From NCBI GenBank assembly GCA_036170335.1, contig JAVHOZ010000065.1:524-35286 (forward strand): a stretch of DNA of 34,763 bases. The letters run 5' to 3'. Below, one piece after another: positions 1,911 through 13,773 of the stretch. The notes beneath the pieces are model-generated. The model was not told the origin of the DNA and searched no databases. It worked only from the letters and a program-made list of their open reading frames with translations. The stretch comes from Candidatus Magasanikiibacteriota bacterium. Lineage in GTDB: Bacteria; Patescibacteriota; Patescibacteriia; Magasanikbacterales; GWA2-37-8. Each line of letters opens with the position of its first letter. Position 1 is the first letter of the stretch. A program made the translations under genes and the position numbers.

Positions 1911-2037
1911 TCACGACCTTGCTTCTTAGTGTAAAAGCGAACGTTAGAGTGCATTGATGGAACGCGCTCTACGATAGATGGAAATATAACTATCTCCATG
2001 ACAAAAAATATCACCCTTCTCTCGGGTGATTTTTTGT
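1911..2037 (+). repeat. 3' module copy B (uninterrupted version of 895-1130), including the terminator
   Basis: accttg...tgtaaaagcgaacgttagagtgcattgatggaacgcgctctacgatag is joined directly to atggaaatataactatctccatgac...atcacccttctctcgggtgattttttgtt. The junction lies between 1977 and 1978. Confidence 0.85.
2010..2037 (+). terminator. Intrinsic terminator after the HEPN/NTase pair
   Basis: Stem atcaccc (2010-2016) pairs with gggtgat (2024-2030), followed by a T-run. Sequence is identical to the terminator at 1101-1128. Confidence 0.75.
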
Positions 2038-2053
2038 TATCCACAGTTTAGCG

Positions 2054-2082
2054 TTGGTTTGTGGGGTAAAAAGGTGTATAAT
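2054..2082 (+). promoter_or_regulatory. Putative promoter for the AbiEi/AbiEii pair
   Basis: TTGGTT (2054-2059), 17-nt spacer, TATAAT (2077-2082). Confidence 0.45.
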
Positions 2083-2125
2083 ATGAAGGTATACGTTTCT
2101 GTTTTTTATTATTTTTAATAATAAA

Positions 2126-2752
2126 ATGAAATATGATGATCTAGAAAATAGCTTATTTAAGCAAAAACCAGTTTTTGATGCCAAAGATATCAAATTGGCT
2201 GGTTTTCGTGTTTTTCCTTATCAATTTAGTTATTGGGTTAAAGATGGAAAAATTAAAAAATTGGCTAATGGTTTTTATGCTTTTGCTAAAGCTGAAATCA
2301 AGACAGAGTATATAGCCAATTTATTACAGCAGCCTTCTTATATTTCATTACAATATGCTTTATATTATTACAATTTAATAGTGGATATTCCGTTTCATAT
2401 CACTTCTGTCACCACCAAAAATACTAGAAAAACAAAAGTTGATGACGCGGTTTATTTTTATCAACATGTTAAGCCATCACTATTCAACGGTTTTGTGATA
2501 GCAGGTAGTCAAGAAAAAATAGCTGGAAATTCATTTATGATTGCCACTCCCGAAAAAGCATTGGTGGATTTGTTTTATTTAAATCCCACACGTTTCAAAG
2601 TTGAAAGTGATTTTTTTGAGGCACGTTTTCATGAAGATGAAATGAAGAAAAAAATTGATTGGCGCGGTGTTTTTAATATAGCCGCTTTGTACAAGAATAA
2701 AAATTTAGAAAAAAGATTACACAATTTTAAAAATTACATTTTTTCCAATTGA
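2126..2752 (+). CDS. AbiEi-like antitoxin / transcriptional regulator (type IV TA, abortive-infection AbiE family)
   Basis: 208 aa. The N-terminal segment (FDAKDIKLAGFRVFPYQFSYWVKDGKIKKLANGFYAF) looks like the AbiEi winged-helix domain. It sits directly upstream of, and is coupled to, an AbiEii-type NTase gene. Confidence 0.7.
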   Translation: MKYDDLENSLFKQKPVFDAKDIKLAGFRVFPYQFSYWVKDGKIKKLANGFYAFAKAEIKTEYIANLLQQPSYISLQYALYYYNLIVDIPFHITSVTTKNTRKTKVDDAVYFYQHVKPSLFNGFVIAGSQEKIAGNSFMIATPEKALVDLFYLNPTRFKVESDFFEARFHEDEMKKKIDWRGVFNIAALYKNKNLEKRLHNFKNYIFSN

Positions 2753-2754
2753 TT

Positions 2755-3537
2755 ATGATGAATTTGGAACAAATTATTTTATTTTCCAAAGAAACCGGGT
2801 TGCCGTCTGGTCGTGATAAACAAGCTTTGGCTGAGTATTTACAGTGTATTATTTTGCAGATAATTGCCAATAGTGACTTTGTTGATAAATTAAGCTTTAT
2901 TGGTGGCACTAGTTTGAGATTTTTTTATGGATTACCTAGGTTTTCTGAAGATTTGGATTTTGATAATTTTGGATTATCTCAGGATAATTTTACCAAATTA
3001 ATAAATGTAGTGAGTAAAAATCTCATCAATCAAGGTTTTGTAGTTGAATGTAGTATCAAGATAAAAGGTGCGTATCATTGTTATGTTCGATTTGATAATT
3101 TATTATTTCAAAATAAACTGTCGTTGCATGCTAACGAAAAAATATTGGTAAAAATTGACACGGTACAACAAGATTTTACTGTTCAAAAAGATCATAAGTT
3201 TTTTAATCGATATGGTATTGTAGAGGAAATGAATATTAATTCACTCGATATTTTGATGGCACAAAAAGTATTGGCTATTTTGGGTAGAAAGACTTCCAAA
3301 GGTAGAGATTTTTTTGATTTTACTTTTTTGGATGGTTTGACCAAACCAAATCTGAATTATTTAGATCACAAGATAGGTATCAAGACTATGTCACAGCTCA
3401 AAGAGCGTTTGTTGCAACGTTGTGCCGAAGTTGATTTTAAAGAAATGGCGCGCGACGTGGAACCGTTTTTATTTAATCACGATGACGTGATCCGGATTAC
3501 CAAATTTCCACAATATATTACGGGGTGGAATGTATAG
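2755..3537 (+). CDS. AbiEii/AbiGii-family nucleotidyltransferase toxin (DUF1814-like)
   Basis: Hallmark motif FIGGTSLRFFYGLPRFSEDLDFD. The track start at 2749 is TTG; the first ATG is at 2755, 3 nt after the AbiEi stop (2750-2752). Confidence 0.8.
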   Translation: MMNLEQIILFSKETGLPSGRDKQALAEYLQCIILQIIANSDFVDKLSFIGGTSLRFFYGLPRFSEDLDFDNFGLSQDNFTKLINVVSKNLINQGFVVECSIKIKGAYHCYVRFDNLLFQNKLSLHANEKILVKIDTVQQDFTVQKDHKFFNRYGIVEEMNINSLDILMAQKVLAILGRKTSKGRDFFDFTFLDGLTKPNLNYLDHKIGIKTMSQLKERLLQRCAEVDFKEMARDVEPFLFNHDDVIRITKFPQYITGWNV

Positions 3538-3554
3538 TTTTGAAAACTAAAAAT

Positions 3555-5003
3555 ATGTTTAAAAAATCCAGACAAGACAATCACCCCAATTTGCTGTTTC
3601 CGCGGTTGTCGCCTTGGGAGCAGGAGTTTACTTTGGGGGCGGGGGCGATTTTGTTGTTTTGGTCGTTGTTGTTGCTTTTGCCGTTGCAGTTGTTTGTGAG
3701 TTTTGGTTTGGTGTTGCTGGGCTTGTTTTTGGTGACCGCTTTTATTTTTAAACTTGAATTACTTTTTTATATTTTAACCACAGTTTCTTTTTTTACCGGT
3801 TGGGAAATTTCTTTTTCCAAATATGAATGGGCGAGAAATATTGTGTATCTATCTTCGGTCAATGCACCACTGGGAGATTTTATCGGAGCGATGTTGTTGG
3901 GGTTGTCGACGCTCGCGATTGTTTTTGGATTTTTGCATCCCGCTTGGAAAGATAAAAAAATATTATTAAAAGTTTCTGGTTGGTATAGTTTGTTTTTGGT
4001 GTGGTCGTTGGTTTGCGCATTGCTGGCAATGGATCATAATTGGATAATCAGTTTAAAATATCTGGTGCGCAATATGTTGTTTGTCTATTTGGCGTTTGTA
4101 ATTTTGCCGGTGATTTTGATAGACAAATTAGACACGATAAAAAATATTTTAAAAATTTGGTTTGGGGTGGGGTTGTTGACGGCACTATTTGGTTTTTCTT
4201 CGCTATACTTTTTTGCGCAGAGCGGTTGGCCGCGGGTGACGCCGTATGGTATCGCTGGGTTTGCTCCGTTGGGATACAATCACAATTTGATCGCGGAGAT
4301 GCTGGTAGTGGTTTTACCGGCCGGTCTGTATTTATTTTTTAAAGCTAAAAACAAGCAACAAAAACGATGGTATTTTTTTGGATTGATTTTTACACTGCTC
4401 GCGGCGTTGTTGACATTGTCGCGCGCGGCGTGGATTACTATTTTTGCGCAATTAGCGGTGTTGGGAGTGGTGTATTTTTCGCAGGTAAAGACTATTTTAA
4501 AGAAAATTAGTCATCTCAATTTTTATTTGTTTTTAGTGGGGTTGATATTGTTTGGATATATGATTTTCTTTTTGACTTCACCGATCGTGCATAGTTCAAA
4601 CAGTTCACGTTTTGCGATGACCGACATTTCATTTTTTATGGCCAACCGTTCACCGCTTCATGGCTATGGTCCGGGGATGTTTATGGAGATACTTGGCAGC
4701 GTGCGCGATTGGACTCAGGAATATGGCGATGCGCTGGATTCACATGGTATTGTGCAGAAGATAATTGTCGAGGACGGCTATGTTGGATTAATTTTTATTT
4801 TATTATTTTTTGTTTATTTATTTAAAAAATTGTGGTTGGTATATCGGATGTCGGATGATAAAGAATTATATATGATATTATTCATGTCAGCGGTAGGGGC
4901 GGTGGTGTTTCAATTTTTCAACACTTCATATTTTGTCAGTGTGATGTGGTTGCCAATTGGTTTGGCCTTGAGCGCCGCGACATTATTGAAAAAAGATTTG
5001 TAA
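3555..5003 (+). CDS. O-antigen ligase / Wzy-like polytopic membrane protein
   Basis: Many predicted TM segments plus the Wzy_C-like motif LLTLSRAAWITIFAQ. The track start at 3525 overlaps the AbiEii stop; the ATG at 3555 (MFKKSRQ) avoids the overlap. Either start is possible. Confidence 0.7.
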   Translation: MFKKSRQDNHPNLLFPRLSPWEQEFTLGAGAILLFWSLLLLLPLQLFVSFGLVLLGLFLVTAFIFKLELLFYILTTVSFFTGWEISFSKYEWARNIVYLSSVNAPLGDFIGAMLLGLSTLAIVFGFLHPAWKDKKILLKVSGWYSLFLVWSLVCALLAMDHNWIISLKYLVRNMLFVYLAFVILPVILIDKLDTIKNILKIWFGVGLLTALFGFSSLYFFAQSGWPRVTPYGIAGFAPLGYNHNLIAEMLVVVLPAGLYLFFKAKNKQQKRWYFFGLIFTLLAALLTLSRAAWITIFAQLAVLGVVYFSQVKTILKKISHLNFYLFLVGLILFGYMIFFLTSPIVHSSNSSRFAMTDISFFMANRSPLHGYGPGMFMEILGSVRDWTQEYGDALDSHGIVQKIIVEDGYVGLIFILLFFVYLFKKLWLVYRMSDDKELYMILFMSAVGAVVFQFFNTSYFVSVMWLPIGLALSAATLLKKDL

Positions 5004-5006
5004 TAT

Positions 5007-6071
5007 ATGCAACATATTGTACAGGTGATACCGGCATTGGGATACGGGGGAGCCGAACGGTTGGTGGTGGATCTTGTTAATCATAGTGATAGCGCGAAAT
5101 ATCGATTTACGGTAATTGTTTTTTTTGATAATTTGCCGCTGAAGTCGTTGATTGAAAAAAAGGCCAATGTTATTTTGATAGAAAAAAAATCCAAATTTGA
5201 TTTTAGTTTTTTAAATAGATTGGAGAAAAAATTAGTGGAGTTGAAACCGGATCTTGTGCATGGACATCTTTTTGCCGGAGATTTTTGGGGACGACTCGCG
5301 GCCCATCGGTTGAGTGTGCCATATTTGAGTACTGAACACAATCTGAATTACGACGACGGTTGGTTGAAAAATTTTGTGAAAAAAATGGTGTCCAGTGAGC
5401 AAGATTATTTTGTGGCTTGTTCTTTGACGGTGTCGGATTATATGCGTACGGTTTATAATATTAAAAATGAAATCAGAGTAATATCCAACGGTATTGAATT
5501 GAATCGTTTTACCAATTTAACACCAATCACTTGGCACAACCCGCTGCGGTTTTTGATGATTGGCCGGTTGACAAAACAAAAAGGTCAGTTGGTAGCTTTG
5601 TCGGCCTTGAAGAAAATTACCAATCATCATTGGCATTTGACAATAGTAGGGTCGGGGATTGAGAAAAATAATTTGCTGGATTTTGTTAGAAAAAATAATT
5701 TACAAGATAGGGTGGAATTTGTGGAACCTTTGGTTCGGGTGGAAAAATATTTTGGTGAAGCGGATGTTTTTTTGATGCCCTCTGTTTGGGAGGGTTTGGG
5801 TGTGGTAGTGATGGAAGCAATGGCTAGTGAGCGAGTGGTGTTGGTGTCCAAAACCGGTGGACTGACGGAGCTGATTCAAGATCAAGAAACCGGTTATTTT
5901 TCAAAACCACAAAATATTTTGGATTGGGAGAAAAAAATAAAATATATTATTGAAAATAAAAACGAAGCACATCGATTGGCCAAAAATGCCAAAATTTATG
6001 CCAAAGAAAATTTTGGTGTTAAAAAAATGATCGAAAAATATGATAAGGTTTATTCTATAATTATACAATGA
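5007..6071 (+). CDS. Glycosyltransferase, GT4 (GT-B fold) family
   Basis: N-terminal GYGGAERLV motif and C-terminal E-x7-E region (PSVWEGLGVVVMEAMASERVVLVSKTGGLTELI). Confidence 0.85.
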   Translation: MQHIVQVIPALGYGGAERLVVDLVNHSDSAKYRFTVIVFFDNLPLKSLIEKKANVILIEKKSKFDFSFLNRLEKKLVELKPDLVHGHLFAGDFWGRLAAHRLSVPYLSTEHNLNYDDGWLKNFVKKMVSSEQDYFVACSLTVSDYMRTVYNIKNEIRVISNGIELNRFTNLTPITWHNPLRFLMIGRLTKQKGQLVALSALKKITNHHWHLTIVGSGIEKNNLLDFVRKNNLQDRVEFVEPLVRVEKYFGEADVFLMPSVWEGLGVVVMEAMASERVVLVSKTGGLTELIQDQETGYFSKPQNILDWEKKIKYIIENKNEAHRLAKNAKIYAKENFGVKKMIEKYDKVYSIIIQ

Positions 6072-6094
6072 TTCCCGTTTTCGCGGGAATGACA
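6070..6094. repeat. Single unit of the GTCATTCCCG...CGGGAATC palindromic repeat family
   Basis: gattcccgttttcgcgggaatgaca, with a 7-bp stem attcccg/cgggaat. It overlaps the last base and stop codon (6070-6071) of the GT4 gene and fills most of the spacer before the radical SAM gene. Confidence 0.85.
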
Positions 6095-6110: not shown

Positions 6111-7103
6111 ATGAATACAAAAATGCCAATAGACTGTGTCTTGGCACTGACTTACGACTGCAATGCGCGTTGTACGATGTGTGATATTTGGAAAATAAAA
6201 GATTCTCCGGCCTTGTCTTTGACGGATTTGGCCAAATTACCCGATAGTCTTTTGGATGTGAATTTATCCGGTGGGGAACCATTTTTGAGGAAAGATTTAC
6301 CGGAAATTGTGGCGGTGATAAAAAAGGCTTGTCCAAAAGCGCGCTTGGTAATTTCTTCCAACGGATTTTTGACGCTGGTAATAAAAAAAGCGATGACGGA
6401 AATTTTGAAAATCGCACCCGACATTGGAGTGGCTTTTTCGATTGATGGTATCGGACAGATGCACAATGAGATGCGTGGCATACCGGGTGGTTTTGACAGG
6501 GTGATGGATTCGCTCAAACTGCTCAAAAGTATGGGCATGACCAATCTGCGTTTGGCTTTCACGATTACCGAATACAATGTGAATCATTTTGCCAAAGTTT
6601 ATGATTTGGCGCAGGAGCTGGGTGTGCAATTTACTCATAGTTTTGCTCAAAGCAGTGAATTTTATTTTGGTGGTAAAAAAAATATAAACAACCCGCGTAA
6701 AGATTTGCTGGAAGTGGCATACAAATATATTATCAATAGTGAACTGAAAAGTTGGAATGTGAAACGCTGGCTACGTGCTTATTTTGCCAATGGTATGTTT
6801 CGATTTATTACCAGTAAAAATCCGGTGTTGGACAATGCTCCGGGACGTGATTTTTTCTTCATCGATCCTAGTGGCGATATTTATCCATCGGTGATGCACA
6901 ATGTGATACTCGGAAATATTTCTCAAGTTGATGATTTTGCAAAATTTTGGCAAAGTGCAGAGGTGGAGGAAAAACGCAAAAAAGTAGATGAGTTGAAAAT
7001 GCCGGTTTGGATGATCTGCACTGCGCGTACAGCCATAAAAAGTCATCCGCTCGCAGTCGGTTGGTGGATTTTGAAAAATAAAATATTTGGATATAAATCG
7101 TAA
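6111..7103 (+). CDS. Radical SAM enzyme
   Basis: CX3CX2C cluster motif in LALTYDCNARCTMCDIWK and a downstream GGEPFL SAM-binding motif. The track start at 6099 is TTG; the first ATG is at 6111. Confidence 0.8.
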   Translation: MNTKMPIDCVLALTYDCNARCTMCDIWKIKDSPALSLTDLAKLPDSLLDVNLSGGEPFLRKDLPEIVAVIKKACPKARLVISSNGFLTLVIKKAMTEILKIAPDIGVAFSIDGIGQMHNEMRGIPGGFDRVMDSLKLLKSMGMTNLRLAFTITEYNVNHFAKVYDLAQELGVQFTHSFAQSSEFYFGGKKNINNPRKDLLEVAYKYIINSELKSWNVKRWLRAYFANGMFRFITSKNPVLDNAPGRDFFFIDPSGDIYPSVMHNVILGNISQVDDFAKFWQSAEVEEKRKKVDELKMPVWMICTARTAIKSHPLAVGWWILKNKIFGYKS

Positions 7104-7104
7104 C

Positions 7105-7166
7105 TGTCATTCCCGTGTAAACGGGAATCCAGAATTAATTAGATTCCCGTTTACACGGGAGTGACA
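7105..7166. repeat. Inverted pair of GTCATTCCCG...CGGGAATC units
   Basis: tgtcattcccgtgtaaacgggaatc (7105-7129), 12-nt spacer, gattcccgtttacacgggagtgaca (7142-7166). It fills the gap between the radical SAM stop and the GT4 start. Confidence 0.85.
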
Positions 7167-7172
7167 AAAAAT

Positions 7173-8372
7173 ATGAAAATAGTGTTAGTAAATAAATTTT
7201 GGTATGCGCGCGGTGGAGCGGAGAAAATCGCGTTATTAACCAAAGAGTTGCTGGAAAAAGCCGGACATCAGGTGAAGATTTTTGGTATGAATCATCCGGA
7301 CAATTTGTTTTCCAATAAATATTTTACGGATTTTGTAGATTATAAAAATTTGGGATTGTTGGCGAAAATAAAATTTGGCGCGCGTGTGATTTATAATGCT
7401 CAAGCCAAAAAGAATTTTGAGAAGTTACTGTCGGATTTTGCTCCGGACGTTGTGCATTTTCATAATATTTATCATCAGCTATCTTGTTCGGTGATTGAAG
7501 CGGTGGCGGAGAAAAAAATAAAATCAGTGATGACTTTGCACGATTACAAATTTATTAGTCCCAATTATAATTTGTATCATCATGGGAAAATTTCTGAGTG
7601 TGGGGTAAATGGAAAATATTATCAGTGTCTTTTGTCCGATTGCATGGAAAATTTTTCCGATAGTCTATTGGCGACGTTGGAGGCGTATTTTGTAGCTTGG
7701 AAAGGTTACAAAAACATGATAAATAAATTTATTAGCCCTAGTAATTTTTTACGTGATAAATTTGTTAAAGCGGGATTTATTGCCAAAAATATTTTGTATT
7801 TGCCAAATGCGATTGAGAATAATAATTTTAAAATGAATTCCGGCGATCTTGATTATGTCGCTTATGTCGGCCGGTTGTCTAGTGAAAAAGGATTAAAATA
7901 TTTATTGGGAGCAGCGGGGAAATTATCTAGTATTAGATTTGTAATAGTGGGCGACGGACCACAACGAGCTGAGTTGGAAAAAATAAAAAATGCCAATCAA
8001 CTAGATAACGTTGAATTTGTCGGACAAAAAAGCGGCGTAGAATTGCAGAGTTTGATTGCTGGTGCTCGTTTGTTGGTGTTACCATCGGTCTGGTATGAAA
8101 ATGCTCCGTTGAGTATTTTGGAAGCGAAAGCGCATGGCAAGATTGTAGTGGCTAGTGATATTGGTGGAATATCGGAAATTTTGCCAAAAGAATTGTTGGT
8201 AAAACCGGCCGATGCGATTATTTTAGCGCAAAAAATCGATGAATGGTTTAATAAAAACGAAACCGAACGTCAATCGATGAGTGAAAGATTGTTTGGCCAA
8301 GCTAGCGCTGAAAATAGACCGGAAATATATTTGCAAAGATTGTTAAAAATTTATTCAGATTTATCCAGTTAA
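7173..8372 (+). CDS. Glycosyltransferase, GT4 family
   Basis: MKIVLVNKFWYARGGAEK N-terminus and C-terminal PSVWYENAPLSILEAKAHGKIVVASDIGGISEI (E-x7-E). The track start at 7161 is GTG inside the repeat; the ATG is at 7173. Confidence 0.85.
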   Translation: MKIVLVNKFWYARGGAEKIALLTKELLEKAGHQVKIFGMNHPDNLFSNKYFTDFVDYKNLGLLAKIKFGARVIYNAQAKKNFEKLLSDFAPDVVHFHNIYHQLSCSVIEAVAEKKIKSVMTLHDYKFISPNYNLYHHGKISECGVNGKYYQCLLSDCMENFSDSLLATLEAYFVAWKGYKNMINKFISPSNFLRDKFVKAGFIAKNILYLPNAIENNNFKMNSGDLDYVAYVGRLSSEKGLKYLLGAAGKLSSIRFVIVGDGPQRAELEKIKNANQLDNVEFVGQKSGVELQSLIAGARLLVLPSVWYENAPLSILEAKAHGKIVVASDIGGISEILPKELLVKPADAIILAQKIDEWFNKNETERQSMSERLFGQASAENRPEIYLQRLLKIYSDLSS

Positions 8373-10612: not shown

Positions 10613-10749
10613 TCTAGCATTGGGAGGTGGTTGCCTAGTTGGTAACAGTCCTTCCCAGTGTTGGGTAAAATTCGTCAGTGTTAGCGCAACTTTTTCGTCT
10701 TGTCAGAGGTAACCAACCCATCTGCACAGGACATGCTCTGGAGGATACC

Positions 10750-11325
10750 ATGACGGAGAATACCTACACCGGTCCGAACATCGATTCGGAGAAGAAGTTT
10801 TTTGGCGCCGGCGCTCCGATGAGTGGCGGACTGTTCGTCGCGATTGGCTTGGCGGTGGTGGCGGTGGTTTTGGCCATCGTCGGCATCAACATGGCCAACA
10901 ACGCCGACACCCACGCCACTTCGATCGAGAAGTCGGTCAGCAAGCTGGGCGATGCGCATGACGCGCTCGCCAAGTACGTCCATGAGGAGCACGACTGGGT
11001 CGTCGCTCGGCTCGCGACGAAAGCCACGGCGACGACGGTCGACGAAGCGATCGCGACTCTGACGGCGAAGGCCGACAAGAGCGTGGTCGACAAGTTGACC
11101 GAGGAGTTGAAGACGAAAGCGTCTAGCTCCACCGTCACGAGGCTGGCCAGCGATCTCCTGATGAAGGCTGACGCGCAAGCGGTCAAGCGGATCGCGCGGC
11201 GAGTTCAAAAGATGGACACGCGTGTCAACAATCTGGTTGACTTGAACAAGTTGATCGAGGTTGCTCCCGCTGCTCCGCCCGCAGCCAAGCCGCCGCTTCC
11301 GGCCGCGGCACCGGCTGCCAAGTAG
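10750..11325 (+). CDS. GC-rich membrane-anchored repeat protein (N-terminal TM segment, about 16-aa K-A-D-type repeats, Pro/Ala-rich C-terminal tail)
   Basis: GGAGG at 10740-10744, 5 nt before the ATG at 10750 (the track ORF starts upstream at 10678). TM segment GGLFVAIGLAVVAVVLAIVGI. Repeats LATKATATTVDEAIAT / LTAKADKSVVDKLTEE / LKTKASSSTVTRLASD / LLMKADAQAVKRIARR. Tail APAAPPAAKPPLPAAAPAAK. GC3-rich codons throughout. Confidence 0.75.
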   Translation: MTENTYTGPNIDSEKKFFGAGAPMSGGLFVAIGLAVVAVVLAIVGINMANNADTHATSIEKSVSKLGDAHDALAKYVHEEHDWVVARLATKATATTVDEAIATLTAKADKSVVDKLTEELKTKASSSTVTRLASDLLMKADAQAVKRIARRVQKMDTRVNNLVDLNKLIEVAPAAPPAAKPPLPAAAPAAK

Positions 11326-11460
11326 TCCGTCCCACGCAACGTGGGCATCGTAGTCAGTACACCATGTTTTTTGATGGTGATGACTCGATGAGGACGCAAA
11401 ATCCCCAAAAGGGTGCCTGTGACGCAAGTCACAGGCATACCGCTTAGTAAATAAAATTTG
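11326..11460 (+). other. Conserved structured 3' module (copy 1) between the stop codon and the terminator
   Basis: Hairpins cccacg-caa-cgtggg (11331-11345), caccat-gttttttg-atggtg (11360-11379) and cctgtgac-gcaa-gtcacagg (11416-11435). Invariant 25-mer aggacgcaaaatccccaaaagggtg (11391-11415). Conserved trailer acc-gcttagtaaataa. Homologous to 12420-12552. Confidence 0.7.
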
Positions 11461-11480
11461 TTTATTGAGCCGATTAAAAA

Positions 11481-11508
11481 ATCACCAAATCAATCTGGTG
11501 ATTTTTTA
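11481..11508 (+). terminator. Intrinsic terminator after GC-rich gene 2
   Basis: Stem atcacca (11481-11487) pairs with tggtgat (11496-11502), followed by a T-run and preceded by an A-run. Confidence 0.75.
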
Positions 11509-11520
11509 TTTTTTTTAAAT

Positions 11521-11545
11521 TGTCATTCCCGTGCAAACGGGAATC
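11521..11545. repeat. Single GTCATTCCCG...CGGGAATC unit
   Basis: tgtcattcccgtgcaaacgggaatc in the AT-rich spacer between the two GC-rich genes. Confidence 0.85.
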
Positions 11546-11663
11546 TTATTTTTGACAAAACACATCAATTGTGGTTTTATAGTATCCAGTGCGAATAGTG
11601 GCTAGTTTGGAATTTCCAATCGGCCAGGCTCAATTGGTCAAGTTTTTGGAGGAAAAGAGGAAC

Positions 11664-12419
11664 ATGGATACTCAACCTTTTGTTATTGGTGCTACGGCGC
11701 CTAAACCCCCGGTGTCTGATCCTGACGAAAGTCGTCATGGTCAAGTTCTCGATCTTCAAGAGATGCGTCGGCGTCTGGCGGAAAAGAAGAATCCGACTGT
11801 CAAGGATGCACTTGAAGCGTTGAGTGTTGAACGCGCTCAAACGGACCAGCTGACCATTCGGGTTGCCGATCTGGAGAACGACAAGCTCAAGGACAACAAG
11901 CACTTCGGTGCCAATGTGTCCGAGGTCGCCAAGCCGCTCATCGCTACGGCTGTTCAGACTTCATACCGGAAGATCTGGAGTGTCGCGGTTGTGGCTGGCT
12001 TGGTTCTGCTGGCTGTGGTCACGGTCGGCGTCTGGTCGCATCAGGCACTCAAGTCTCGGGTTTCACTGGTGGAGTACGGTTTGACCGCTAAGGCCGATCA
12101 GGCTCAGGTGGACAAGATCGTGTCTCAACTCACGACCAAGGCGGACAAGTCCGAGCTCAAGGCTATTGAAGCCAAGGCAGACCGCTCGGTTGTCGAACGT
12201 CTCAGCCAAGAGCTCAAGGAGAAGGACGGCGCGCACGACGCACGTCTCAACGATCTGGCCACGGATCTGATGTCCAAGGCCAATCAAGAGGAGGTTGAAA
12301 AGCTCTCCGCTCGTCTGCGCTCAACTCGCTCCAAAATTCGCTCGCTCGAACAGCGGATGAAGGAGTTCTCGACTTCGGTTCCAGCGCCGGCTCCAGCCGT
12401 TCCGCCCAAGACCATGTAG
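11664..12419 (+). CDS. GC-rich membrane-anchored repeat protein, paralog of 10750-11325 with a longer N-terminal cytoplasmic-type region
   Basis: ATG at 11664 is preceded by ggaggaaaagagg (the track start at 11589 is GTG). Central TM segment IWSVAVVAGLVLLAVVTVGVW. Repeats LTAKADQAQVDKIVSQ / LTTKADKSELKAIEA / KADRSVVERLSQE / LMSKANQEEVEKLSAR. Pro/Ala tail VPAPAPAVPPKTM. Confidence 0.75.
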   Translation: MDTQPFVIGATAPKPPVSDPDESRHGQVLDLQEMRRRLAEKKNPTVKDALEALSVERAQTDQLTIRVADLENDKLKDNKHFGANVSEVAKPLIATAVQTSYRKIWSVAVVAGLVLLAVVTVGVWSHQALKSRVSLVEYGLTAKADQAQVDKIVSQLTTKADKSELKAIEAKADRSVVERLSQELKEKDGAHDARLNDLATDLMSKANQEEVEKLSARLRSTRSKIRSLEQRMKEFSTSVPAPAPAVPPKTM

Positions 12420-12552
12420 TCCACCCATGCAATGTGGGCAATGAGATCTGTTTGCTTTGTTTTTGAAAGCGAACTACTCTAGAAGGACGCAAAATCCCCA
12501 AAAGGGTGTCCCGACTTAGTCGGGACTACCTGCTTAGTAAATAATTTTTTTG
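12420..12552 (+). other. Conserved structured 3' module (copy 2)
   Basis: Hairpins cccatg-caa-tgtggg (12424-12438), gtttgcttt-gtttttg-aaagcgaac (12450-12474) and tcccgac-tta-gtcggga (12509-12525). The identical 25-mer lies at 12484-12508. Trailer acc-tgcttagtaaataa. Confidence 0.7.
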
Positions 12553-12610: not shown

Positions 12611-13537
12611 TTATTTACCGGTGATTAAACATACCACTGATCCATCAAATTTCCAATTTTGTTTTATGGCTTGTTGTAATCCAACAATTGCGAGCGCGCT
12701 ATTTGGTGATAATTTTATTTTTTCAGTTTCTTCTACTAGTTTGATTGTATTTTTTATTTGTTGGTCGTCGGCTATCCAACCAAAACCGTGACTGTTTGTT
12801 ATATCGGCGGTTACCATTTCTTTGCGGTGAGCAATGTTATCCACGATTGCGCCGGCCAGTGATGTCTTTGTCATTCCCGCAAAAGCGGGAATCTTGGTTG
12901 TGTCGACAGATTCCCGCTTTTGCGGGAATGACAATAAAAATTTTTCTGTAATCGGATGCACTGCGCTAGTTTGTACAATATGAATTTGAGGATTTAGTTT
13001 TAATTTTTTAAAAGCAGCGTGAAGTCCTTGGGCGGTAGTACCACTGGATGTTGGGATAAAAATTGCCGATAGATTTTTTATTTTATTCAATTCCAGAGCA
13101 AGTTGTTCGTATCCGGTTAGGGCAGTATCATCTATCGACTGGCGTAATATTTTGGCCTTGCCGGATTTGTCGATTTGAAAAGCTGATTGTTTTGGATTTT
13201 TTATTTTTATTAAAAATATATTTTTGGATAATATTTTTGTTAATATTTTTTCTTTGGCTTTGTCAATTTTTTCACCCACAAAAATTTGTAAAGTCAGTTT
13301 GTTTTTGTGTGTCCGATTAAATTTTTTAATATACAAACCAGCGGCCAAAGCGGCATTTCCGGAAGAAGATATTACAAAATTAGCAAGTCCTTGTTTGACA
13401 TAAAAATCTACCATCAGTGGTATAGAACGGCCTTTGTGTGACCCAAGCGGGTGTAAATCTTCTCTTTTGAAGTAAAGAGGCGCTTCCAAACCCAGTGTTT
13501 TAGCCAATTTTTGATGTTTTGTTTGAGGGGTTATCAT
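12611..13537 (-). CDS. PLP-dependent enzyme of the tryptophan-synthase-beta / threonine-synthase-like fold, carrying an in-frame repeat-derived insertion
   Basis: Lys-containing motif EDLHPLGSHKGRS (compare the S-F-K-D-R PLP-lysine motif), a Gly-rich loop FIPTSSGTTAQG and a C-terminal CLITG. The track start at 13549 is TTG; the ATG is at 13537. Residues LSFPQKRESVDTTKIPAFAGMTK are encoded by the repeat pair at 12869-12933. Confidence 0.7.
   Translation of the reverse strand: MITPQTKHQKLAKTLGLEAPLYFKREDLHPLGSHKGRSIPLMVDFYVKQGLANFVISSSGNAALAAGLYIKKFNRTHKNKLTLQIFVGEKIDKAKEKILTKILSKNIFLIKIKNPKQSAFQIDKSGKAKILRQSIDDTALTGYEQLALELNKIKNLSAIFIPTSSGTTAQGLHAAFKKLKLNPQIHIVQTSAVHPITEKFLLSFPQKRESVDTTKIPAFAGMTKTSLAGAIVDNIAHRKEMVTADITNSHGFGWIADDQQIKNTIKLVEETEKIKLSPNSALAIVGLQQAIKQNWKFDGSVVCLITGK
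12869..12933. repeat. Inverted pair of GTCATTCCCG...CGGGAATC units located inside a coding sequence
   Basis: tgtcattcccgcaaaagcgggaatc (12869-12893), 15-nt spacer, gattcccgcttttgcgggaatgaca (12909-12933). The host ORF stays open through it. Confidence 0.85.
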
Positions 13538-13608: not shown

Positions 13609-13773
13609 ATGATTTTAACTTGTCTTGAATGTAAAAATCCAGTCGATCTTACTTCTTATCCGGATTTGGATATCGGTCATGTGATAGAATGTGAGATGTG
13701 TGGCATTACTTTGGAGGTCATCTCGATTGATGGTGATAAAGTAAAAGCGGAAGTTGTTGACGAGGGAAAATAA
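13609..13773 (+). CDS. LysW-like zinc-ribbon small protein (54 aa), absent from the ORF track
   Basis: Translates as MILTCLECKNPVDLTSYPDLDIGHVIECEMCGITLEVISIDGDKVKAEVVDEGK. It has two CxxC pairs with the spacing and the C..CG..LEV pattern of LysW-type amino-group carrier proteins, and an acidic C-terminus. Stop TAA at 13771-13773. Confidence 0.55.
   Translation: MILTCLECKNPVDLTSYPDLDIGHVIECEMCGITLEVISIDGDKVKAEVVDEGK

Follow-up and report, generated by a model that had tools for sequence, protein, structure and literature searches.

In-frame reading of a CGTC-1-type palindromic repeat pair within a PLP-dependent enzyme of Candidatus Magasanikbacteria

How a palindromic repeat that is dispersed mostly between genes comes to be read as part of a protein is the question raised by one locus of Candidatus Magasanikiibacteriota bacterium (GenBank assembly GCA_036170335.1, contig JAVHOZ010000065.1, positions 524 to 35,286). 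In this stretch of 34,763 nucleotides, hereafter called the window, two inverted copies of a repetitive extragenic palindrome (REP) lie in frame within the minus-strand gene 12611-13537, which encodes an enzyme of the PALP family dependent on pyridoxal phosphate (PLP). The explanation arrived at here, which we consider very probable, is that a REP dimer of the CGTC-1 type, a dispersed repeat of the Candidatus Magasanikbacteria lineage, is read through in a functional PLP enzyme, where it lies in a flexible and variable loop, that this loop has thereby grown from 14 to 28 residues and that the filled loop has been exchanged as a cassette by recombination.

The repeat pair and its family

A repeat finder gave two arms of 27 nt (12868-12894 and 12908-12934) which are 100% complementary and are separated by a gap of 13 nt, and the core element TGTCATTCCCGCAAAAGCGGGAATC-15 nt-GATTCCCGCTTTTGCGGGAATGACA spans exactly 12869-12933 (65 nt). 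Its architecture is that of a head-to-head dimer of a 25-nt REP with a TGTC tag, an 8-bp stem ATTCCCGC and a 4-nt loop, and each arm on its own is the hairpin ATTCCCGC/AAAA/GCGGGAAT. The element begins at nucleotide 605 of the gene and reads ...KFL-LSFPQKRESVDTTKIPAFAGMT-KTSL..., in which LSFPQKRES-VDTTK-IPAFAGMT constitutes residues 202-223, that is, 22 residues. In gene sense, unit 1 (TGTCATTCCCGCAAAAGCGGGAATC; 12909..12933, minus strand) reads L202-S210 (LSFPQKRES), the 15-nt spacer (TGTCGACACAACCAA; 12894..12908, minus strand) reads (S)VDTTK and unit 2 (GATTCCCGCTTTTGCGGGAATGACA; 12869..12893, minus strand) reads I216-T223 (IPAFAGMT). An earlier note made from the letters of the window had described such an in-frame inverted pair inside 12611-13537, and this is confirmed both by the sequence and by the repeat finder, the open reading frame (ORF) being intact. 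The in-gene dimer is free of stop codons in four of the six frames, one of which is used by the gene, whereas no frame of the intergenic dimer at 7105-7166 is open; this difference fits a survival filter by which stop-free, frame-restoring events persist in genes.

CGTC REPs were described by Di Nocera, De Gregorio and Rocco (2013, BMC Genomics 14:522; PMC3733652) as repeats with an unpaired CGTC (often TGTC) tag, stems of 8-9 bp starting with the pairs A-T and T-A, loops of 4-5 nt and a short tail, which form mostly head-to-head dimers (tags outside) and have no associated transposase. In the same paper CGTC-1 is equated with dRS3 of Neisseria and with RPE-6 of R. conorii, one of the Rickettsia palindromic elements (RPEs); intragenic REPs are reported from several species, the dimers there encoding 20-30 aa, and the peptides of the CGTC-1 inserts of R. 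conorii are SFPRKRES, MSFPQKRKS, VIPAKAGI, WIPAFTGMT, DSRFRGND and CHSRESGNP (Additional file 3 of PMC3733652). As judged from the sequence, the repeat of the window fits this family in every defining feature except the tail consensus. TGTC, an accepted variant of the tag, begins all six units of the window; the stems and loops agree, with variants such as ATTCCCGT/GTAA/ACGGGAAT; and the tags lie outside in both dimers of the window as well as in those of contigs L003, L005, L008 and L132 (here and below, L numbers denote contigs and P numbers orthologous proteins). In addition, the open-frame translations of the window unit closely match the CGTC-1 peptides of R. conorii, through which the sequence type was checked. 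The tail is CCA in the copy at 7105 and CTT or CTG in the others, whereas it is mostly CCA in CGTC-1.

The likeness to the CGTC-1 REPs therefore comprises the tag, the 8-bp stem that begins AT, the 4-nt loop, the head-to-head dimers, a mostly intergenic position near gene ends, occasional in-frame intragenic dimers of 20-30 aa and the peptides SFP[RQ]KRES, VIPAKAGI and IPAF[AT]GMT. The differences, besides the tail, are that the host belongs to the Patescibacteria, or Candidate Phyla Radiation (CPR), which lay outside the 2013 survey, and that repeated hits on one loop and the recombinational spread of a cassette, both discussed below, are absent from the 2013 description; the only similar case there is that of REPs at about the same recB site in two Xanthomonas species (PMC3733652). 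The earlier note had suggested that a process like that of the RPEs operates here, and this suggestion gains support, because RPE-6 of R. conorii belongs to CGTC-1 and gives similar intragenic peptides; the Rickettsia analogy thus goes as far as shared membership in a single repeat family.

The other known systems resemble the locus in part. RPEs (Ogata et al. 2000, 2002) are likewise palindromic repeats in frame within conserved protein genes, and the host proteins tolerate them. At the present locus, too, the insertion is in frame in a conserved gene that stays functional, as far as function can be told from selection, but the host is a free-living or epibiotic groundwater member of the CPR and not an obligate intracellular alphaproteobacterium of the genus Rickettsia. 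Classical RPE-1 elements are longer (about 100-150 bp) and belong to a different sequence family. The dRS3 elements of Neisseria are clustered in intergenic mosaic arrays and act as integration targets, whereas the units described here are singles or simple dimers, one of them in a coding region. With the Neisseria dRS3/NIMEs (Neisseria intergenic mosaic elements) they have in common the core ATTCCC-N8-GGGAAT with a CGTC tag (PMC3733652). The in-gene pair is also similar to REPINs, composed of two inverted REPs with a short spacer that can form one long hairpin. REPINs are said, after Bertels and Rainey in 2011, to be mobilised by RAYT (REP-associated tyrosine) transposases, with a GTAG tag and a RAYT gene present. 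This assignment was rejected, since the tag is TGTC and not GTAG and no transposase was recognised by Pfam in 20 ORFs of the window; CGTC REPs, moreover, are not known to have a transposase of their own. An assignment to miniature inverted-repeat transposable elements was also rejected: the flanks of the two dimers (TCTT and ATAA; TAAC and AAAA) are without duplication, and the spacers of the two are unrelated.

The host enzyme and its loop

The host gene (12611..13537, minus strand, ATG at 13537) is intact and encodes 308 aa of a PALP-family, fold-type-II PLP enzyme with a threonine-synthase-like fold (Pfam PF00291, E 1.2e-30). Models of threonine synthase and threonine deaminase match far below their cut-offs, the best NCBIfam threonine synthase model giving 57 bits against a cut-off of 266, so identity as a threonine synthase was rejected and only the fold and the PLP-lysine motif are common. 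Sequence matches in the PDB are weak. The AlphaFold2 model of the protein, built on 120 orthologues, has a mean predicted local distance difference test score (pLDDT) of 92.4 and a predicted template-modelling score of 0.90, and its top structure in Foldseek is the threonine synthase 2zsj (E 1.5e-18, template-modelling score 0.81). A database search gave 1869 relatives, the closest of which are named "PLP-dependent lyase/thiolase" and come from Magasanikbacteria and other Patescibacteria. Outside the loop the ratio of nonsynonymous to synonymous divergence (dN/dS) is 0.10-0.15 against seven orthologues. Furthermore, the protein deviates at one of the 106 columns that are at least 90% conserved (family median, 2; 103 of the 120 members deviate at least equally), and the invariant residues, including the lysine motif SHKGRS, are all kept. 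Judging from these values, the gene is under purifying selection and not decaying. The earlier note had left two possibilities, that the enzyme tolerates the insert or that the gene is decaying; dN/dS and the lack of other lesions support the former, and the latter is rejected on the same dN/dS, the intact ORF and the single deviating column.

The segment from HPI(A/T) to S(L/I)AGAIVD has about 14 residues in most of the 120 orthologues and 28 in the window protein. In the closest repeat-free orthologues (P0003/L006, P0005/L001 and P0007/L007), 23 nt stand opposite the 65-nt element, a net difference of 42 nt or 14 codons. Because the loop is only 42 nt longer, the 65 nt would replace about 23 nt of native loop and are not a clean addition. 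The segment is thus extra relative to the family, as had been supposed; the element does encode 22 residues, but the supposed gain of about 22 shrinks to 14. Comparison of the DNA with the closest orthologues revealed no target-site duplication at the in-gene element. The spacer TGTCGACACAACCAA resembles the native loop codons of the empty P0003 (TGTACAACTACAACCAA), weakly so in a local alignment (shuffle p 0.02), and it may be the original loop sequence. Moreover, in a related pair of orthologues P0008 has unit 1 only and P0006 both units, with a difference of 27 nt. The P0008/P0006 difference and the native-like spacer point to a stepwise build-up, the pair having probably been made unit by unit around native loop codons and not as one block.

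In the AlphaFold2 model the insert lies between the strand 184-190 and the helix 239-248, as coil: beyond a short helix at 197-203 the region lacks secondary structure. The mean pLDDT is 64 for residues 201-210, 48 for 211-220 and 78 for 221-230, and residues 215-220 fall below 50. The motif that follows the insert (SLAGAIVD; SLAsAIvD) aligns with TIATAI of threonine synthases. The model supports, without proving, a position in a flexible surface loop: of the surface loop that had been expected from the RPE comparison, the low-confidence coil is found, and its exposure is supported rather than proven.

The same loop is filled by repeats in other members of the family. Its length ranges from 9 to 63 residues among the 120 orthologues, and many of the long loops resemble REP translations. 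Independent insertions were confirmed at the DNA level in two cases. P0076/L132 has a CGTC-1 head-to-head dimer (TGTCATTCCTGCGAAAGTAGGAATC...GATTCCAGCTTGCGCTGGAATGACA) with compensated stem variants, slightly displaced and read in another frame (VIPAKVGI...SSLRWNDS), and the loop of P0108/L131 contains a different palindrome, of the GTCATTGCGAG type. REP-like inserts were also found in a second loop (alignment columns 106-150) of P0031, P0054 and P0086. At the level of sequence, these comparisons show a loop that in one orthologue or another tolerates inserts from several REP families.

Mosaic history of the filled loop and rival explanations

Two further orthologues, P0002 and P0004 (78% identical, from independent assemblies and other samples), have the same insert in frame, and the relation of the three filled genes to one another differs between the loop and the rest. 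Over most of the gene the window DNA is 88-93% identical to the empty P0003 and 66-81% to the filled P0002, whereas in 90-nt windows around the loop the order is reversed, with 36-71% to P0003 and 85-93% to P0002. When the doubtful loop alignment is left out and the flanks alone are counted, informative sites favour P0002 by 12:1, against 40:142 elsewhere (Fisher p 4.8e-7), and other triplets gave similar results. Synonymous divergence (dS) from P0002 amounts to 0.18 for the insert, compared with 1.39 for the backbone. Both a tree with the loop masked and pairwise identities put the three filled proteins each nearest to an empty one (88-93%), while the filled proteins are 76-80% identical among themselves. 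In addition, the flank states that accompany the insert (V before HPI, EKF and SLAG) resemble those of a more distant clade (P0029 and relatives).

The approximate mosaic tract in which the window gene is like the distant filled P0002 and P0004, the rest being like the empty P0003, is 12855..12963 (minus strand), with the conserved motifs PQIHIVQT and AGAIVDN at its borders. Together with flanks of about 25 nt on the left and 15 nt on the right, the filled loop thus stands on three gene backbones, each nearest to an empty orthologue, which indicates that it has passed between diverged lineages by homologous recombination. The simplest reading is an exchange of a cassette of roughly this tract, with breakpoints in the coding sequences of the two motifs. 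A scan of metagenomes for the gene-specific left junction gave only L134 (identical to L003) and one unrelated intergenic REP.

From these data the following course of events may be proposed. REP units would have entered the loop via the REP dispersal mechanism, probably unit by unit, and only frame-restoring, stop-free events would have survived; the filled loop would then have moved between lineages, the conserved coding motifs on either side being the likely homology arms. In its effect on the protein the insert is most likely neutral or close to neutral. At the level of RNA, the sense strand of the insert would form a perfect hairpin of 27 bp (-49.7 kcal/mol, z -11.5) within the coding region, which could slow translation or attract a double-strand RNase; the hairpin is kept in the other filled orthologues (-32 to -41 kcal/mol), and no such structure is found in an empty orthologue (-5.5 kcal/mol, z -0.2).

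Two rival explanations dispute either the pair itself or the soundness of its gene, and both are far less probable than the insertion of a REP dimer into a functional gene. That the pair is an assembly artefact, a repeat-induced chimera, has the slightest probability of all the alternatives considered. REP arms are indeed very abundant in the source groundwater metagenomes, the summed depth of the contigs that carry them being 2000-4000 against about 5 for the PALP gene, and repeats confuse assemblers. Nevertheless, the insert recurs at the same codon in diverged sequence in independent assemblies of other samples (L003 from JGI, L004 from ENA and L005 from Logan), a Logan contig of 538 nt covers the pair and both junctions with zero differences, and the reading frame is kept. 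The tract of the window differs from L005 at six positions, so it was not spliced from those contigs. P0004, moreover, originates in other projects, and a chimera would require a double switch within about 110 nt. Variants with and without the insert were not visible in the Logan contigs, where the gene has a depth of about 5x. Hardly more credible is a decaying pseudogene in which the repeat insertion is one of the lesions. The insert does adjoin a conserved motif, and the near-invariant T135 is changed to I, but the intact ORF, the low dN/dS and the single deviating column given above speak against decay, as do the confident fold prediction and the persistence of the insert in two other lineages with a backbone dS above 1.

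The other two rivals accept the insertion in a functional gene and concern its history and its use. That the dimer entered a sequence-specific target three separate times, with no recombination of a cassette, would be in keeping with the repeated entry of REPs into this loop in other orthologues and with the A/T run GAAAAATTTTTA beside the element, a possible preferred target. On the other hand, the three alleles have a corresponding spacer (VDTTK, IDTTK and ADIAM), and the flank substitutions (V for C before HPI, EKF for INF and SLAG for SIAG) occur together with the insert; independent insertions would not import flanks, and this alternative is accordingly judged improbable. Somewhat less improbable, though still unlikely, is that the insert is kept because it is useful, either because a hairpin in the mRNA adjusts the expression or stability of the gene or because the enzyme has gained a new surface loop (exaptation), and that selection spread it over the backbones. 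Usefulness would agree with the 27 of 27 complementary positions of the arms in the window, even though the cassette is common to lineages with a backbone dS above 1, with the hairpin potential kept in all five filled orthologues, with the presence of the cassette on three backbones and with the second arm of P0004, where a CCCGT...ACGGG stem variant still pairs (this arm has the GTTTAC variant, as in the intergenic copy of the window). Against this, processes at the level of the family generally keep REPs palindromic, the arms of P0002 and P0006 are in decay, and most orthologues are without the insert. The dN/dS of the insert is not low (0.048/0.176 and 0.155/0.392), which argues against constraint at the protein level. 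A search of RNA-seq runs gave no run with the PALP gene.

Several points weigh against a recombining REP dimer in a functional enzyme, the explanation that is preferred here. All the sequences are metagenome assemblies, and only three filled alleles of this type were found, besides two of a related one. With neither a target-site duplication nor a clean empty site definable, the insertion event is reconstructed rather than observed. As to the direction of change, the empty loops of P0030 and P0003 might themselves be decayed REP relics: local alignment with the REP plus spacer gave a weak similarity (p about 0.02, uncorrected) for these two, and three other empty loops were not significant. 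Surface exposure is read from low model confidence and absent secondary structure, and the insert, being directly beside a conserved motif, may conceivably affect activity.

Other copies, neighbouring genes and significance

The motif ATTCCCGC-N4-GCGGGAAT with at most two mismatches occurs five times in the window, where 100 shuffles gave an expectation of 0.01, and a fuzzy search of the 35-kb window gave six units (6070-6094, 7105-7129, 7142-7166, 11521-11545, 12869-12893 and 12909-12933). The four that are not in the PALP gene all lie between genes, as the earlier note had stated. Two of them make up the second head-to-head dimer (7105..7166), which takes up the space from a radical-SAM gene, with its stop at 7103, to a glycosyltransferase gene, whose ATG is at 7174; the others are single intergenic units on the minus (6070..6094) and plus (11521..11545) strands. 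The unit at 6070-6094 gives the last two bases (GA) of the TGA stop (6069-6071) of the glycosyltransferase gene 5007-6071, which is analogous to the TAG stops described as supplied by GTAG REPs (PMC3733652). REP units number zero on the syntenic 15-kb contig of L001, a close relative, one in L007 and six in L008.

The exact dimer pattern TGTCATTCCCG-N6-CGGGAAT...ATTCCCG-N6-CGGGAATGACA was scanned in one genome per GTDB species and has at least 120 loci; the matches listed include the CPR, Pseudomonadota, Bacteroidota, Chloroflexota, Planctomycetota, Firmicutes, Omnitrophota and Rickettsiales, and among these listed matches long ORFs contain 8 of 129 copies. The clearest intragenic case is UvrA of Candidatus Liptonbacteria (L072, 510-3269), where the dimer is in frame at residues 517-541 and reads VSFPRTRES...DSRFHGND, with UvrA/ABC Pfam domains flanking it on both sides; this agrees with a remark on repair genes in PMC3733652. 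A doubled 50-aa repeat-peptide query against proteins gave five word candidates and no matches.

The divergent neighbour of the PALP gene is a gene for a LysW-like zinc-ribbon protein (13609-13773, plus strand, 54 aa; PF21344, E 3.5e-7), a pairing that recurs in the majority of the related contigs inspected (L001, L003, L006, L007, L009, L132 and L133). Both genes lie within a cell-wall (mur/mraY) neighbourhood, and the LysW adjacency hints that an amino-group carrier protein is the partner of the enzyme. Orthologue names and syntenic contigs place the window in a groundwater Candidatus Magasanikbacteria genome; its G+C content is low (about 36%), and scans of it with Rfam and for tRNA genes gave no matches. 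Positions 1-840 are a partial ORF of 61% G+C without a Pfam match, in which a 9-nt periodic repeat encodes collagen-like G-x-x triplets (NGTNGKDGANG...) followed by a part rich in Ala, Asp and Ser. At 910-2038 a toxin-antitoxin-like pair of HEPN (1209-1619) and nucleotidyltransferase (1592-1903) genes is flanked by direct repeats, 910-958 and 1067-1129 recurring at 1929-2038 with 96-100% identity, and each copy ends in a terminator-like hairpin; the arrangement suggests a cassette that was inserted through duplication of a 3' untranslated element. A gene for an AbiEii-type nucleotidyltransferase toxin (2749-3537) adjoins an O-antigen-ligase-like (Wzy_C) gene in a glycosyltransferase cluster, a position conserved in L001 and L008. 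The region 10678-12510 has 46-52% G+C and contains the ORFs 10678-11325 (or antisense 10681-11427) and 11589-12419, which have no Pfam match. Each of these ORFs is followed by an 85-nt element (11331-11415 and 12424-12508, 72% identical) and then by a GC-rich hairpin and CGCTTAGTAAATAA, with no Rfam match.

In-frame insertion of palindromic repeats is already known, and what is new here is the host phylum and the host gene, so that knowledge of the kind of element itself is unchanged; the recurrent colonisation of one loop and its recombinational spread add some interest, for which a larger DNA sample is needed. A wider but tentative interpretation, which we hold to be possible rather than probable, is that this loop of a CPR enzyme is a landing pad with at least three independent colonisations by different REP families, that the cassette then spreads by short-patch homologous recombination via the flanking conserved motifs between lineages of about 20-25% protein divergence, and that some native 14-aa loops may be decayed REP relics. 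If true, this would be a route of REP propagation without a transposase, and REPs would be a steady supply of loop sequence in these proteins.

For annotation, the peptides SFPQKRES, IPAFAGMT, VIPAKAGI and DSRFRGND in CPR proteins are to be taken as repeat-derived loops and not as domain features or errors. Moreover, the CGTC-1 repeat is near-identical across many phyla, and the mosaic pattern is a concrete case for the spread of REPs that have no known transposase and for the extent of recombination between diverged CPR lineages. The locus adds the Candidate Phyla Radiation, with its small and, as usually described, streamlined genomes, to the hosts of in-frame "selfish DNA in proteins" of the REP/RPE type.

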